NCBI GenBank assembly: GCA_964514585.1
Contig: CAZETU010000001.1
Coordinates: forward strand, 120,901 to 144,900
DNA: 24,000 nucleotides
Direction: 5' to 3'
DNA from: Candidatus Woesearchaeota archaeon
GTDB lineage: Archaea; Nanobdellota; Nanobdellia; Pacearchaeales; GW2011-AR1
Shown here: positions 1,943 through 9,825 of the stretch, in pieces
Layout of the letters: each line of letters starts with the position of its first letter
How positions within the stretch are numbered: position 1 is the stretch's first letter
Program-made: the position numbers and the translations under genes
The notes under the pieces: generated by a model
Told to the model about the DNA's origin: nothing
Seen by the model: the letters and a program-made list of their open reading frames with translations, nothing else
The model's database searches: none

Positions 1943-3156
1943 CCCCTCAACGCCTCCACCGGATTTTGTTTAGCCGCACTCATCGCAGGAACAATCCCCG
2001 CAATAGCCCCAATCATAAAACTTCCAAACAATGCCATTCCAATTAACATAAAATCAACAACGGGCGTCATGTCAGAACCAAGAAAGCTATTAATCCCAGC
2101 AACGCCAGCAACACTAATCAACGTCCCAAGAACAGCCCCGACCAAACCACCAATAAGCCCAAGTAAGCCAGATTCAAAAAAGAACTGCATAAAAATTTGC
2201 CAATTAGTCCCACCAATAGCTTTCATAATCCCAATCTCTTTTTTCCTCTCTAGAACCGAAGTCGTCATCGTATTAACAATCCCCAACGCACCAACCAAAA
2301 TTGAAATCGAAGCAATAATTATAATAAAAGCCTGAACGCCACCAAGAATACTATTCACCGTTTCCATCGTCGCCTCTGGAGTCGAAACCTCGAAATCCTC
2401 TTCTCCTTCATCAACATCCCTTCTCTTTCTTAATAGCTTCGCAATATCCTCAGCCGCACGGTCCATCAAATCTGGATCCTTAATGTGAGCAACTATTACA
2501 TCAACATCATCACCAGTATCAAATAAATCTTCCAAAGCAACTTGATCCATCAAAACAATACTATCCCAAACAAAACTCCCCTTCTTTTTCAATATCCCCA
2601 CAACCCTAAAACTTTTATCTTGAACTAACACATTATCTCCCAAAACGACTTCCTTTTCAAGACCAACCTTGTCAACAAAAAAATTAGCTCCCAAAACAAC
2701 CTTATTGGAATCTGAACCACCAAGCATCCTTCCTTTATCAATTTCAAGATCATTAACTTCATACATAAAATCAGCATCATCCCCACGAGGAACATTCGAA
2801 GCAAACCCAAAAATAACCCTATCATTAAATTCCAACTTGCCCGTTTGAATATATCGAGGCAAAACCCTGTTCACAGAACCAATATTCTCTATCGCTCGAG
2901 CATCATCTTTAGTCAAAGAATTCACAACACCACTTCCTGGCGGGCCATAAGCATTAAGTCCCCCAGCCTGAACCGTAATTATTTCCGTAGAACTAATCCC
3001 AAATTGAGCACTAACCGCCGCCTGTAACCCATTCCCAAGACCAATCAAAGCAACAACAGCAGTCACCCCAATAAAAATACCAAGTAAAGTCAACCACGAC
3101 CGAATCCCACGATGCCGTAAATTTTTCAAAGCAAGAATCAAATAATCAAGATTCAT
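1939..3156 (-). CDS. ABC transporter permease, MacB/FtsX type (permease 2)
   Basis: 405-aa ORF with the same architecture as 309-1520 (…VLERKKEIGIMKAIGGTN…). Its start overlaps the ATPase stop by 1 nt. Confidence 0.85.
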   Translation of the reverse strand: MNLDYLILALKNLRHRGIRSWLTLLGIFIGVTAVVALIGLGNGLQAAVSAQFGISSTEIITVQAGGLNAYGPPGSGVVNSLTKDDARAIENIGSVNRVLPRYIQTGKLEFNDRVIFGFASNVPRGDDADFMYEVNDLEIDKGRMLGGSDSNKVVLGANFFVDKVGLEKEVVLGDNVLVQDKSFRVVGILKKKGSFVWDSIVLMDQVALEDLFDTGDDVDVIVAHIKDPDLMDRAAEDIAKLLRKRRDVDEGEEDFEVSTPEATMETVNSILGGVQAFIIIIASISILVGALGIVNTMTTSVLERKKEIGIMKAIGGTNWQIFMQFFFESGLLGLIGGLVGAVLGTLISVAGVAGINSFLGSDMTPVVDFMLIGMALFGSFMIGAIAGIVPAMSAAKQNPVEALRG

Positions 3157-3977
3157 TATTTCACTCCGTTAGATTTGCCCGACTTGATTGGAACTTTAGT
3201 TCCCTTTTTTGAGGGTACACCATTGAGCGCAGCTTCTTTCTTCTTCTTCTTAGTAACATCAATAAACCTAGACCCAACCCTCTTCGTAACTTTCTCCAAC
3301 TTCCCATCTAACAACCAATAAACAACATCAGCATACTCCTCAGCCAAATCCGGATCATGAGTAACCATAATAATCGTCTTCCCCTGCTTGTTCAACTTCT
3401 CCAAAAAATGCATAACAATATCCCCAGTCTTAGTATCCAAATTCCCAGTCGGCTCATCAGCAAGAATCACTTCGGGATCATTCGCCAAACTCCGCGCAAT
3501 CGCAACTCTCTGCATCTGCCCCCCAGAAATCTCTCCAGGATAATGATCCATCCTATCATGCAACTCAACCAACTTCAACAACTCCTCAGCCCGCCCAGCC
3601 CGCTCCTCAACACTCGTCCCCTGAAACATCATCGGCAACATCACATTCTCTTTCACCGTCAAATTCGGAATCAAATTAAACGATTGAAAAATAAACCCAA
3701 TCTTCTTCCCCCGAATCTGCGCCAAATCAGACTCACTCAACTCACTAATATCAGCATCATCTAAATAAATCGTCCCAAACGTCGGCATATCCAAACTCCC
3801 AACTAAATTCATCGCCGTCGATTTCCCAGAACCAGAAGGTCCCATAATAGCAACAAACTCTCCCTCATAAACTTTAAACTCCAAATGACTAAGCGCCTTC
3901 ACAACAGAGTCCCCCATGGGGTAATGCTTCGAAACATTCCTCAATCTAATAAACTCTTTCTTTACCTCTTTCGCCAT
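3156..3977 (-). CDS. ABC transporter ATP-binding protein (MacB/LolD-like) with Lys-rich C-terminal tail
   Basis: Walker [10 protein letters not shown], signature [13 protein letters not shown] and Walker B ILADEPT are all present. The ORF track starts at a TTG (3992). I prefer the ATG at 3977 ([15 protein letters not shown]…). Confidence 0.9.
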
Positions 3978-4027
3978 ACAGAAAATACACAAATATCATA
4001 TATAAATATAGTGATAGCAAAACTTAC

Positions 4028-4057
4028 ATTTCACCAGAAATACCTACTGGGTAAACC
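4028..4057. repeat. Copy D of the ACCA-apex hairpin repeat (atttc-acca-gaaat) followed by acctactgggtaaacc
   Basis: Perfect 5-bp stem at 4028-4032/4037-4041 with loop acca. The adjacent 16-mer at 4042-4057 matches 5662-5677 (tRNA-Arg trailer insert) at 15/16 positions. Confidence 0.6.
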
Positions 4058-4122: not shown

Positions 4123-4320
4123 ATGATAATCCCAATAAGATGTTTTAGTTGCGGAAAACCAATCGCACACTTATATCCAAAATACAAAGAAATGGTCGAA
4201 TCAGGCAAGACCCAAAAAGAAGCACTAGACGAGTTAGGCATCAAACGATACTGCTGCAGAGCACAAATTCTAGGACAAACAGACACATTAGAATTGATTA
4301 ATAAATTCAAAAAGTTTTAA
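4123..4320 (+). CDS. rpoN: DNA-directed RNA polymerase subunit N (Rpo10)
   Basis: The 65-aa product MIIPIRCFSCGKPIA…LGIKRYCCRAQIL has the characteristic zinc-binding CxxC…CC pattern and the length of archaeal RpoN / eukaryotic RPB10. Confidence 0.9.
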   Translation: MIIPIRCFSCGKPIAHLYPKYKEMVESGKTQKEALDELGIKRYCCRAQILGQTDTLELINKFKKF

Positions 4321-4340
4321 TTATTTTTTTAAATTTTATC

Positions 4341-4790
4341 ATGGGAAATATAAAAGTTATCTCTTGGGATGTATACGGAACTTTAATAGCAACACATTAT
4401 GATAAATCCACAGATTGCGGGGACATCCCATTAAAACTTAGACCAAGCGCATTAGAAATTCTAACAGAAATAAAATCAAGACAAATCATTCAATGCACAT
4501 GCTCAGATGGCCACTTGGAAAATCTAAAAAACAATTTAAGAGAAGCAGGAATAAATTGGACAGATTTCTTCGACGATTTATACAAAATGGAACCATTCCA
4601 ACAAAAGGATTTCTCTTACATAATAGAAAATTATAATATTAGACCAGAAAACCTCTTAGTTGTCGGAGACAATTATGATATAGATATCTCTTTAGCAAAA
4701 AGACAAGGTTGCAAAACTTTACACGTCCCAGAAAAAGAAGAGTTCAAAAAGAATCCATTAGACACATCAAAAATACTAGAATTATTATAA
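4341..4790 (+). CDS. HAD superfamily hydrolase (DxYGT subtype)
   Basis: Motif I WDVYGTL, motif II CTCSDG and motif IV VVGDNYDIDI are present. 149 aa. Confidence 0.65.
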   Translation: MGNIKVISWDVYGTLIATHYDKSTDCGDIPLKLRPSALEILTEIKSRQIIQCTCSDGHLENLKNNLREAGINWTDFFDDLYKMEPFQQKDFSYIIENYNIRPENLLVVGDNYDIDISLAKRQGCKTLHVPEKEEFKKNPLDTSKILELL

Positions 4791-4871
4791 ATAGACAGTT
4801 CCGCGTGTTCCCACCAAAGACAGTATGGACACATTAGAACTAGTTAACAAATTCAAAAAATTCTAATTATT
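4789..4871. repeat. Chimeric duplicate: a fragment of the 5S rRNA 3' end fused to a fragment of the rpoN 3' end
   Basis: By my hand alignment, 4789-4832 matches 5442-5485 at 38/44 positions (3' terminus of the 5S gene, minus strand). 4828-4871 matches 4282-4325 at 38/44 positions (last 12 rpoN codons, stop and ttatt). The join is at gacac, which both parents share. Confidence 0.75.
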
Positions 4872-4872
4872 A

Positions 4873-5301
4873 TTAATGCCAGTCATAAAAACCACTACTT
4901 ATAACTTTACTAACAAGATGACGCCTAAGCTCACAATCAGGCATTTGCTCAACCTCTCCATCTCTTATCTGAATGGGCCAACACTGCATTTTTCCTCTTG
5001 CATAATAATCAGGTGATTCTCTTAGATGTTTTTTCGCATCTTCAGGAGACTTACCAAGACAGAAAGCAGATTCATTACATACATAACATTTATCAGGATT
5101 CCCAAAATCATGACGTCTCCTTATGGGAACTTTATAAAGATTCAACTTTTTATTATCTTTTTCGAAATCAAATTCTCCAATCAATAATCCCAGTATTCCC
5201 AGTCCGGCTATTCTATTAAATTGTCTTCTATTCAACATTAAATTAACAAGTGAACCAAGTTTATAATAATTATTGAGATAGATTATTATTAAATTTTTCA
5301 A
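4873..5301 (-). CDS. Hypothetical small Cys-containing protein with a twin-arginine (Tat)-like signal
   Basis: 142-aa ORF. The internal Met22 (start at 5238) gives MLNRRQFNRIAGLGILGLLIG, i.e. an RRxF motif plus a hydrophobic region. The mature part contains CYVC and three more Cys. I recognise no family. Confidence 0.5.
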   Translation of the reverse strand: MKNLIIIYLNNYYKLGSLVNLMLNRRQFNRIAGLGILGLLIGEFDFEKDNKKLNLYKVPIRRRHDFGNPDKCYVCNESAFCLGKSPEDAKKHLRESPDYYARGKMQCWPIQIRDGEVEQMPDCELRRHLVSKVISSGFYDWH

Positions 5302-5388
5302 ATTTTTTCTTTATTCTAATTAATCAGCCGAATAAAGTCAAAAGAAATCAAATTATCTGCGACAAAGTCGGTAAGTAATTTGGAACCT

Positions 5389-5439
5389 AAAATTCTGCAG
5401 AATTTTCCCAATGATTTTTTCACCAGAAAAAATGTTAAT
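5389..5439. repeat. Double-hairpin intergenic repeat, copy A
   Basis: Hairpin 1 is aaaattc-tgca-gaatttt (5389-5406). Hairpin 2 is attttttc-acca-gaaaaaat (5414-5433), a perfect 8-bp stem. 35/48 positions are identical to copy B (6119-6166). Confidence 0.7.
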
Positions 5440-5445
5440 AAAAAT
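5440..5445 (-). terminator. Oligo-T (T5) run directly after the 5S rRNA 3' end
   Basis: The minus strand reads …GAGCTGTCTATTTTTATTAAC. Archaeal RNA polymerase terminates at oligo-T tracts. Confidence 0.4.
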
Positions 5446-5552
5446 AGACAGCTCCGTGCGTTCCCATCAAAGACAGTACAGACACGAACATAACAAGCTT
5501 AACTTCTGAGTTCGGAACGGGATCAGGTGTAACCAAGTTATTATGGCCGTCT
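5446..5552 (-). rRNA. 5S ribosomal RNA (orphan, roughly 107 nt, ends approximate)
   Basis: The reverse complement reads AGACGGCCATAATAACTTGGTTACACCTGATCCCGTTCCGAACTCAGAAGTTAAGC…GATGGGAACGCACGGAGCTGTCT. This contains the universal 5S loop/helix motif CCGAACTCAGAAGTTAAGC, the GGGAAC box, and a terminal helix I (AGACGGC / GCTGTCT). Confidence 0.85.
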
Positions 5553-5570
5553 AACATTACATCAAAATTC

Positions 5571-5598: not shown

Positions 5599-5620
5599 TT
5601 CAACGCTCCTGACAGGACTT
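5599..5620 (-). repeat. Exact 22-nt copy of the tRNA-Arg 3' end (no cloverleaf partner)
   Basis: ttcaacgctcctgacaggactt is identical to 5683-5704, at an offset of 84 nt. Confidence 0.9.
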
Positions 5621-5687
5621 CACTCACCAGAGGGATGTCAAATGGACGCGATCACCAGATCACCTACTGGGTGAACCTCAGGTTCAA

Positions 5688-5763
5688 CGCTCCTGACAGG
5701 ACTTGAACCTGCGACTTCTTCCTTAGGAGGGAAGCACTCTAATCCAAACTGAGCTACAGGAGC
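5688..5763 (-). tRNA. tRNA-Arg (anticodon CCT)
   Basis: The reverse complement folds as a cloverleaf: GCTCCTG TA GCTC AGTTTGGATTA GAGT G CTTCC CTCCTAA GGAAG AAGTC GCAGG TTCAAGT CCTGT CAGGAGC G. 76 nt, no encoded CCA. Confidence 0.9.
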
Positions 5764-8622: not shown

Positions 8623-9825
8623 CTAATGCGTCGTCAGAAGTTTCAATCTTATTGCCTCCTGAATATTTCCATAAACTCGATTAACATCCACCGTTATCGC
8701 AACCATCTGCCTTTTCATATTTTCAACCTGAACTTCTAGTAACTCTGACCTATTTTCTGATTTTGTAAGTCGCTTTTCTAATTCTGTTTTAGTTACATCA
8801 ATTAGTAAATCCTCTTCAGAAATTGTATCTCTCATCCCAAGCATTTCAGAATAATAATGAATCTTGTCAGATTTCTTCCATCCGAATCTGAATTTTAATG
8901 CTGATTCGGATTTGTATCTTGGCAACCAATAGCAACAACTGCAATGCCTAAAATCATACATTGTTAAATCAGAATATTTCTGGCCTGCCAAGCTTTTTTC
9001 ATCACCAAATAGTTTTTTAGCAACTCTTTTCAAATAACGATTCACGACTGGCGGACTAAATTTGAACAGATAATCTTCTGTATCTAATTCATTCTCCTTG
9101 ATGTATCTTTTAACTAATTCGGAACAAATCATCAGCTTAATCCTTCTTCCGAAAGTTTTGCTTATTTCATCCCGAATGTTCAACTCCTTAAAATCCTTAG
9201 ACAAATCAGAAACTTTCACATTCATTAATTCAGTTGGAGACCTAATTCCTGTATCAAATAAAAACATCACAATCGTCTTATATTTTGGGTTGCAGTTTTC
9301 GGAGAATAATTTTATTTGCTCTTCATTTAAATAAACCCATTTGGGTTTCTCTCTAGAAGTATCTAAGTAAGTTGTAATATCTTCAACCTCTTTTCCCGCC
9401 TTCCTTGCGACTTTTTGATACCAGTGCCAGAATGCCTTAAACATCTTGACAAAGTCTCGTGTCGCCTTATATTCGCGCCCGTCCTGCCGTCTTATCACTC
9501 CCTTTCTCATATCAACAAAGAATTGGCAGAGTTGTTGCTCTGTCAATTTAGTCAAGTCATCAACATCTAAAACTTCTTTAAATTTTCTAGTCAGAAAAGT
9601 TAGTCTGAGCCTAATCGTATTAAGTCTTATAAAACTTCTAGCACCTTTTTTCGAAGATAAGGAAGTGTTGATTCCAAGTTCCATATCAATCAAGTATTGT
9701 AGAATTATTGACGAGTTAGCTCTGGAGAGGTCAGGAATGCCCCCTGCTTCCTTGACTCTATTTTTCCAACGGGTCAGCGACCCTTCGTGGTTATAAGGAT
9801 CAATCTTCATGGTGTCAGTGTCCAC
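8623..9825 (-). CDS. Tyrosine recombinase / phage-type integrase
   Basis: 400 aa with a GTG start. It carries box I FDTGIRSPTEL (catalytic Arg), box II YDFRHCSCCYW (HxxR-like), and a C-terminal …SDKIHYYSEML that holds the candidate catalytic Tyr. Confidence 0.85.
   Translation of the reverse strand: MDTDTMKIDPYNHEGSLTRWKNRVKEAGGIPDLSRANSSIILQYLIDMELGINTSLSSKKGARSFIRLNTIRLRLTFLTRKFKEVLDVDDLTKLTEQQLCQFFVDMRKGVIRRQDGREYKATRDFVKMFKAFWHWYQKVARKAGKEVEDITTYLDTSREKPKWVYLNEEQIKLFSENCNPKYKTIVMFLFDTGIRSPTELMNVKVSDLSKDFKELNIRDEISKTFGRRIKLMICSELVKRYIKENELDTEDYLFKFSPPVVNRYLKRVAKKLFGDEKSLAGQKYSDLTMYDFRHCSCCYWLPRYKSESALKFRFGWKKSDKIHYYSEMLGMRDTISEEDLLIDVTKTELEKRLTKSENRSELLEVQVENMKRQMVAITVDVNRVYGNIQEAIRLKLLTTH

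Follow-up and report, generated by a model that had tools for sequence, protein, structure and literature searches.

An 83-nt 5S rRNA/rpoN chimera in an archaeal genome as the probable scar of illegitimate recombination between related lineages

The window analyzed here is a 24 000-nt stretch (C1:120901–144900) of the archaeal genome G000, which comprises 18 contigs and 1.04 Mb with a GC content of 37% and is 90% complete. Within it, the genes for RNA polymerase subunit N (rpoN) and 5S rRNA enclose two cargo genes and, between the latter, a fragment of 83 nt in which a piece of the 5S gene is fused to a piece of rpoN. We propose, with a probability of roughly 0.8, that this chimera was left behind by a single illegitimate recombination, in which two versions of the rpoN-5S interval from related lineages were joined. 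The first version would have been rpoN-HAD-5S and the second rpoN-ORF142-hairpin element-5S. In the crossover, 5S of the HAD version would have been connected with rpoN of the ORF142 version, the latter from a diverged lineage. The breakpoint would lie about 43 nt into the 5S gene, counted from its 3′ end, and 12–13 codons from the rpoN stop codon, on the short word AC-N-GACAC that both genes share (8 nt in their present form). The expected product is rpoN (intact)-HAD-(5S stub/rpoN stub)-ORF142-5S (intact), in which both essential genes remain complete, no cargo is lost and the original 3′ neighbor of each cargo persists as a stub. A merger of two haplotypes by illegitimate recombination had already been suggested in a preliminary description of this DNA, and the existence of a HAD-only form, the allelic nature of the rpoN stub and a parallel case in a second genome of the genus support it. 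Such an event is of a known kind and calls for no new mechanism.

The chimeric fragment and its two parent sequences

The local gene order reads ABC ATPase (3156–3992, minus strand), rpoN, a HAD-family hydrolase gene, the 83-nt fragment, ORF142, a hairpin element and the 5S rRNA gene, followed by tRNA-Arg and tRNA-Leu. The rpoN gene (RNA polymerase subunit N/Rpo10; 4123–4320, plus strand, 65 amino acids) is intact and matches Pfam family PF01194 (RNA_pol_N, E 9.8e-26); its orthologs show 75–92% identity genus-wide. The first cargo is a small HAD-family hydrolase of 149 amino acids (4341–4790, plus strand; PF00702/PF13419), and the second is the orphan ORF142 of the open reading frame list (4873–5301, minus strand), with 142 amino acids or 121 if read from the ATG at 5238. 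Between ORF142 and the 5S 3′ end lies a repeat element of three hairpins (5340–5440). The 5S gene itself is complete (5443–5554, minus strand) and represents the single match to Rfam RF00001 in the genome (74.2 bits).

A repeat search of the window returned two pairs of repeats that meet in the fragment, both on the plus strand. In the pair D1, positions 4782–4832 correspond to 5435–5485 over 51 nt with 84% identity. The latter copy, which we term B, is of the parent type and comprises the 3′-terminal part of the functional 5S gene with its trailer, and the former is a truncated copy termed B′, whose gene-derived part (4790–4832) is the reverse complement of the RNA. In the pair D2, positions 4282–4328 correspond to 4828–4874 over 47 nt with 85% identity. 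Here, the parent-type copy A is the present rpoN tail with its last 12 codons, the stop codon and a short trailer, and A′ is a detached copy of this tail, whose stop codon (4864–4866) abuts that of ORF142. The copies B′ and A′ overlap at GACAC (4828–4832), as can be read directly from the sequence. As first counted in the preliminary description, the 5S-derived part (4789–4832) and the rpoN-derived part (4828–4871) are each identical to their parent at 38 of 44 positions. When the region 4782–4877 was searched against the 1.04-Mb genome with blastn-short, real matches were limited to two, namely 5S with E 1.8e-5 and the end of rpoN with E 7e-5, and no further copy of 5S or rpoN was detected by this search. 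B′ covers about 43 of the 112 nt of the 5S gene and RF00001 matches positions 5443–5554 only, hence the stub is not a full-length gene.

The initial placement of the switch between both parents at GACAC holds, but the microhomology is longer than the 5 nt first assigned to it: the present-day rpoN and 5S genes share the 8-nt word ACAGACAC (4279–4286 in rpoN, 5478–5485 in 5S), which is the longest direct word common to both genes. At the corresponding site, the fragment carries ATGGACAC. A shared 8-mer arises in 32% of shuffles and its mere presence is not remarkable; the notable point is that the junction sits on ACAGACAC. In the rpoN allele of G003, one of the genus genomes compared (numbered G0xx; contigs and loci are numbered L0xx), the junction site reads ACG GAT ACA, and its match with the fragment extends to the codon before GAC (ACG, versus ATG in the fragment). 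Given a parent with ACG at this codon, a single C-to-T change would account for the junction. The identity at the junction lies in the short range of 3–10 bp between otherwise unrelated sequences. All 12 differences between the stubs and their parents are transitions, a pattern that we rejected as an unusual signal because 75–80% of the differences between natural alleles at this locus are transitions and about 20% of comparable allele pairs differ by transitions exclusively.

The fragment is spanned over its entire length (4789–4871) at 100% identity by seven independent metagenome assemblies (JGI 3300005915, 3300005916 and 3300023262; ENA ERZ27316021 and ERZ27315835; Logan SRR7528416 and SRR5581655), and contigs from many samples carry the exact HAD, ORF142 and rpoN proteins. 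An assembly chimera of two co-occurring strains is therefore a practically negligible explanation: the seven assemblies were produced by different assemblers and agree over the junction, and the word of 5–8 nt that the junction shares with its parents is far shorter than any word size used by a k-mer assembler. The longest exact run common to the fragment and either parent measures about 11 nt. What could be held in favor of a chimera is that contigs break inside the fragment in one sample, ERZ27315536, the only one in which this occurs, and that the contigs L052 (JGI 3300005915) and L053 (ENA ERZ27315536) switch to divergent sequence within the ABC ATPase gene. From position 3312 or 3433 rightwards (compared region 3234–3433), both contigs agree with the window at 100% identity, and their left part is 14–23% diverged from it and resembles the congeners G018/L062 and G019. 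This switch is either a recent recombination tract between co-occurring lineages or an assembler strain switch.

By its formation, the junction also generated an ATG (4825–4827) in frame with the rpoN-like codons and thereby an open reading frame of 13 codons (4825–4866, MDTLELVNKFKKF), which is probably accidental. We regard it as highly improbable that the fragment is a selected functional element, be it this short reading frame or a terminator that serves HAD and ORF142, which converge on it, in both directions. Such a role would fit the position of the fragment, which fills the entire 82-nt gap between both genes, the in-frame start codon and the little decay seen in A′. However, neither strand is predicted to fold in a remarkable way (z = −1.4 and −1.9), a terminator scan of the fragment yielded no terminator-like site, the changes in B′ break conserved 5S positions, and the counterpart of the fragment in the genome G013 is altered by a deletion and other changes (see below).

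Allelic origin of the rpoN tail and decay of the 5S stub

The order of the two stubs, 5S end followed by rpoN tail, is exactly the order expected at the junction of a tandem duplication, as had been pointed out in the preliminary description. The fragment might thus have arisen in place and in a single lineage: the stretch that begins with the rpoN tail and closes with the 3′ end of 5S would have been duplicated, one cargo copy later replaced or lost, and the stubs would then have diverged. Besides the order, the equal divergence of A/A′ and B/B′ (6 of 44 positions each) is in line with such a duplication, and so is the presence of a 56-nt unit behind the nearby tRNA-Arg gene, the tandem copy number of which varies between assemblies. 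We nonetheless consider this origin quite unlikely. The two cargos are without similarity, so that the two units are not copies of the same sequence, and the differences between both rpoN tails are of a kind that a duplication in place would not produce.

Five of the six differences between A and A′ are synonymous and one is an exchange between isoleucine and valine, as listed originally. The peptide encoded by the fragment is DTLELVNKFKKF followed by the stop codon, and this same peptide ends rpoN in most members of the genus and hence represents the majority allele. At all six sites, the closest relative of G000, G005, as well as the metagenome contigs L058, L061 and L062 agree with A′, and every state of A′ is found in some functional allele. 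On the DNA level, A′ and the rpoN tails of G005 and L062 have 36 of 39 positions in common, whereas A matches that of G005 at only 30 of 39. Since it is the detached, non-functional copy in which the six differences match the relatives, a duplication in place followed by decay is ruled out for A′; it would have put codon-random changes into the free copy, the opposite of what is observed. Moreover, five synonymous changes in 12 constrained codons predict about 15–20 changes in a neutral stub of 39 nt, of which 0–1 are observed. A′ is hence an allele and not a decayed duplicate, and the proposal that the stub descends from a once-functional divergent rpoN allele is supported by its genus-majority peptide and its agreement with the closest relatives at six of six sites. 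A relative with an rpoN 3′ end identical to the fragment, which the preliminary description had suggested looking for, was not found.

If derived changes are expected in the non-functional copy, this expectation holds for B′ and fails for A′, since at each of the six sites that differ in rpoN it is the functional tail A that carries the derived or foreign state. The 39 nt of rpoN that precede A (gene positions 121–159) match G005 at 37 of 39 positions, compared with the 30 of 39 for A itself, and this step in identity falls on the GACAC boundary (Fisher p = 0.024; binomial p = 0.037, on 39 nt). The attached tail A thus looks foreign to its own gene, with modest support from p values of about 0.02–0.04 on 39 nt.

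The 5S part behaves differently from the rpoN part. B is identical to its G005 counterpart at 42 of 44 positions, and B′ has changed at three positions that are invariant in all 5S genes of the genus (AGCT>AGTT, CATC>CACC and GTAC>GTAT). With these substitutions, B′ shows mild decay, as expected of a stub.

Cargo haplotypes of the rpoN-5S slot and a second junction

The view of the rpoN-5S spacer as a variable cargo slot is borne out by the comparison across the genus. In the genus genomes read, rpoN and 5S remain adjacent with spacers of 33 nt to 4.5 kb, and the orientation of rpoN facing 5S is conserved in the genus and beyond. Depending on the genome, the slot holds a radical SAM protein, a GDP-mannose dehydratase, a serine hydrolase, a DegT-methyltransferase fusion, a LAGLIDADG endonuclease, orphan reading frames or nothing. 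The 5S gene is inverted in four genomes. A LAGLIDADG-type reading frame of about 280 amino acids lies beside the inverted gene in G013 (locus L020, 1181–2023, minus strand) and in G020 (locus L023, 1206–2045, minus strand), and G006 and G017 possess an inverted 5S gene without such a reading frame. In other families of the order (L028–L032), the slot is occupied by a minus-strand gene of about 90 amino acids that is homologous across these loci and is the ancestral slot occupant outside the genus; the protein from L028, the one that was scanned, shows a weak match to the Rpr2/Rpp21 RNase P domain (27.4 bits, below the Pfam cut-off of 29.3).

It had been predicted that variants of the interval with a single cargo should exist, carrying either the HAD gene or ORF142. 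This is true for the HAD gene. Five metagenome contigs (L058–L062) read ABC-rpoN-HAD and then directly 5S, which is complete in L058–L061, while L062 ends 17 nt into the gene. Their HAD proteins are 71–79% identical to that of the window. In these HAD-only contigs, the HAD stop codon overlaps the 5S 3′ end by 1–2 nt, the same geometry as in the window, where B′ overlaps the HAD stop codon, and in L058, L061 and L062 the local sequence of this abutment is homologous to that of HAD and the fragment in the window. Hence, the 5S stub is the remnant of an rpoN-HAD-5S haplotype, namely of its 5S gene. The known HAD-only haplotypes carry A′-like and not A-like tails, which means that the donor of A is unsampled. 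Neither of the two cargos belongs to the core genes: as with ORF142, no ortholog of the HAD gene was detected in the 48 other species of the genus, and none of its homologs in other genera is located near rpoN or 5S. A HAD remnant was likewise absent from positions 4875–5440. The 168-nt spacer of G005 has a 14-nt exact word in common with the HAD 3′ end, which we rejected as a HAD remnant because the comparison on the protein level was not significant. GC content was also rejected as a marker of foreign cargo, the values for HAD (0.316) and ORF142 (0.322) being similar.

For ORF142, no haplotype with this cargo alone was found, and this parent of the proposed merger is one that we infer. No similarity was found between ORF142 and HAD, in agreement with the earlier statement that the two units carry unrelated cargo. 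ORF142 is without a Pfam match and without a homolog among 5.8 billion proteins, 48 genus genomes and 120 family genomes. The protein is rich in cysteine and contains an N-terminal RR motif (RRQF) followed by a hydrophobic segment. Its original labeling as a Tat-signal protein is doubtful, since TatC was not detected in the 90%-complete genome. The hairpin element that follows ORF142 contains one hairpin with a TGCAG-centered palindrome and one with an ACCA loop. It occurs in about ten intergenic copies in the genome (among them C1:318869, 202943, 107973, 60887, 271245 and 210748; C2:148449; C6:16806; C5:227), one of which is identical over 45 nt, and the copies differ by compensatory changes in the stems. 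The copy at C1:318869, where the neighborhood was read, sits just beyond the stop codon of a gene, and G003 has the same element beside its own 5S gene.

A second junction, again of a 5S stub with an rpoN-tail stub, is present in G013. Over 78 nt it can be aligned with the fragment of the window at 70.5% identity, and it carries a 9-nt deletion and further changes. The left half of this locus corresponds to G008 (rpoN body 88%, cargo reading frame 78% on the amino acid level, 5S stub 93%) and also matches G002, the identity of the cargo protein across G008 and G002 being 76–78%. The right half corresponds to G020 in its LAGLIDADG reading frame (48% on the amino acid level), in the rpoN stub (89% over 27 nt), and in the inverted 5S gene and the tRNAs that follow. 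Both parental single-cargo haplotypes of the G013 junction therefore exist separately in other species. The events in G000 and G013 were independent of each other, because each stub is nearer to a real allele elsewhere than to the stub of the window. Taken together, the pattern of differences between A and A′, the HAD-only haplotype and the sampled parents of the G013 junction reveal that the joined segments come from two diverged genomes.

The 5S parts of G000 and G013 share their end point, GACAGTA with a T after it, and in either stub the conserved GTAC has been lost (to GTAT). The tetranucleotides GTAC and ACGT are strongly depleted across the G000 genome, at 0.28 and 0.32 of expectation, which suggests restriction avoidance. 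Given the depletion of GTAC, its parallel loss in unconstrained copies is a plausible explanation for the shared end. Extra copies of the 5S 3′ end were found in two of the 49 genus genomes, namely G000 and G013, and both are fused to an rpoN tail. Further junctions were absent from the 49 genus genomes and from the genome contigs examined by a pattern search, and four matches of this search in metagenome contigs were false positives.

Routes of the recombination and comparison with known systems

The physical route that brought both versions of the interval together was likely either an unequal crossover between two chromosomes or the arrival of incoming DNA with one-sided homology and a join at the microhomology, similar to homology-facilitated illegitimate recombination (HFIR). 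The end of an imported tract was not located in either flank of the junction. Concerning the direction of the transfer, we lean weakly towards A′-ORF142-B as the putative native part and A-HAD-B′ as the added piece, because A′ and B resemble the nearest relatives; the sampled HAD-only haplotypes with their A′-like tails count the other way.

HFIR in naturally transformable bacteria is described as using microhomologies of 3–10 bp (PMC6382021; de Vries and Wackernagel 2002, PMC122324). The event proposed here resembles HFIR in that DNA was added and not swapped, one end was joined at a microhomology, donor and recipient are related but divergent, and the flanking genes are intact. As to the one-sided homologous anchor of HFIR, the observations made here are the step in identity to G005 at the GACAC boundary and the lack of a located tract end. 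The event differs in the host, an archaeon for which we know of no route of DNA uptake. Finally, the genes that share the microhomology, rpoN and 5S, are different ones from a single locus, and the product therefore mimics a tandem duplication. Junctions of unequal crossover and segmental tandem duplication share with the fragment the order in which the end of a unit precedes the start of a unit, the short direct repeat and the preservation of flanking genes, but the units here carry unrelated cargo and the stubs are allelic, not paralogous.

A different origin would be a site-specific event, in which an enzyme cut out the spacer as a cassette and reinserted it, B′ and B being the duplicates of the attachment site. 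The enzyme might be a homing endonuclease with its cleavage site in the 5S gene or an integrase, for which the 3′ end of 5S would serve as attachment site and ACAGACAC as the core of the crossover. B′ (4782–4832) and B (5435–5485) indeed bracket an insert of 600 nt in the manner of att repeats at the 3′ ends of RNA genes, exact 3′-end duplicates accompany the neighboring tRNA-Arg and tRNA-Leu genes, a LAGLIDADG gene occupies the slot of G013 and G020, and the identical end nucleotide of the 5S part in G000 and G013 is a possible hint of more than plain microhomology. We still judge this origin improbable. The slot of G000 contains no integrase or endonuclease, Pfam searches of HAD, ORF142 and their neighbors returned no recombinase, the LAGLIDADG reading frame of G013 is without a homolog in G000, and a further reading frame in the window (8623–9825, minus strand, 400 amino acids) has no Pfam match at E 0.01. 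In addition, the only extra 5S 3′ copies among the 49 genus genomes are the two that are fused to rpoN tails, ACAGACAC is not conserved genus-wide in rpoN or in 5S, and B and B′ have no exact block longer than 11 nt in common. An order-wide Rfam search revealed one full-length 5S gene per genome; as partial copies are invisible to this search, it is silent on an integrase.

A related and somewhat speculative idea, to which we give a low probability, is that the rpoN-5S spacer forms a discrete cassette, which a site-directed process exchanges. The 5S gene may be cut at the conserved GACAGTAC by the slot-borne LAGLIDADG endonuclease (as found in G013 and G020), or a circle may be excised and reinserted between two AC-N-GACAC words. 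If true, such an exchange would explain why the 5S part ends at the identical nucleotide in the junctions of two species.

The tandem accretion of integrative elements at tRNA 3′ ends is comparable to the merger of two interval versions in that the added DNA lies between direct repeats of a stable-RNA 3′ end and cargo builds up in adjacent units. In the present case, however, an integrase is absent, the repeat is 84–86% identical and not exact, and the distal one of the two repeats continues into part of a protein-coding gene. To our knowledge, att recombination does not yield a repeat of the latter composition. In additive flexible genomic islands, two core genes that are always the same enclose a slot with content that varies between close relatives. 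The rpoN/5S pair encloses its slot in the same way, but on a tiny scale (0–4.5 kb, one to few genes) and with the junction that created the two-cargo state still legible. The fragment preserves a readable trace of how diverged lineages of small uncultivated archaea (DPANN type) recombined without a mobile-element gene, and it offers a stepwise view of how a tiny slot between core genes gains cargo additively. As imperfect direct repeats, A/A′ and B′/B predict a fallback to either single-cargo form.

Two observations concern the vicinity of the slot. The last 17 nt of tRNA-Arg together with 5 nt of its trailer are repeated exactly 84 nt downstream (window positions 5599–5704), and other assemblies of the same population (L050, about 5270–5420) contain a third copy in the form of an extra 56-nt unit, so that the copy number of this array varies. 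A motif of the form TCACCAGA..ACCTACTGGGTRAACC is found both in the divergent intergenic region between the ABC ATPase gene and rpoN (4031–4057) and in the insert of the tRNA-Arg trailer (5652–5677).
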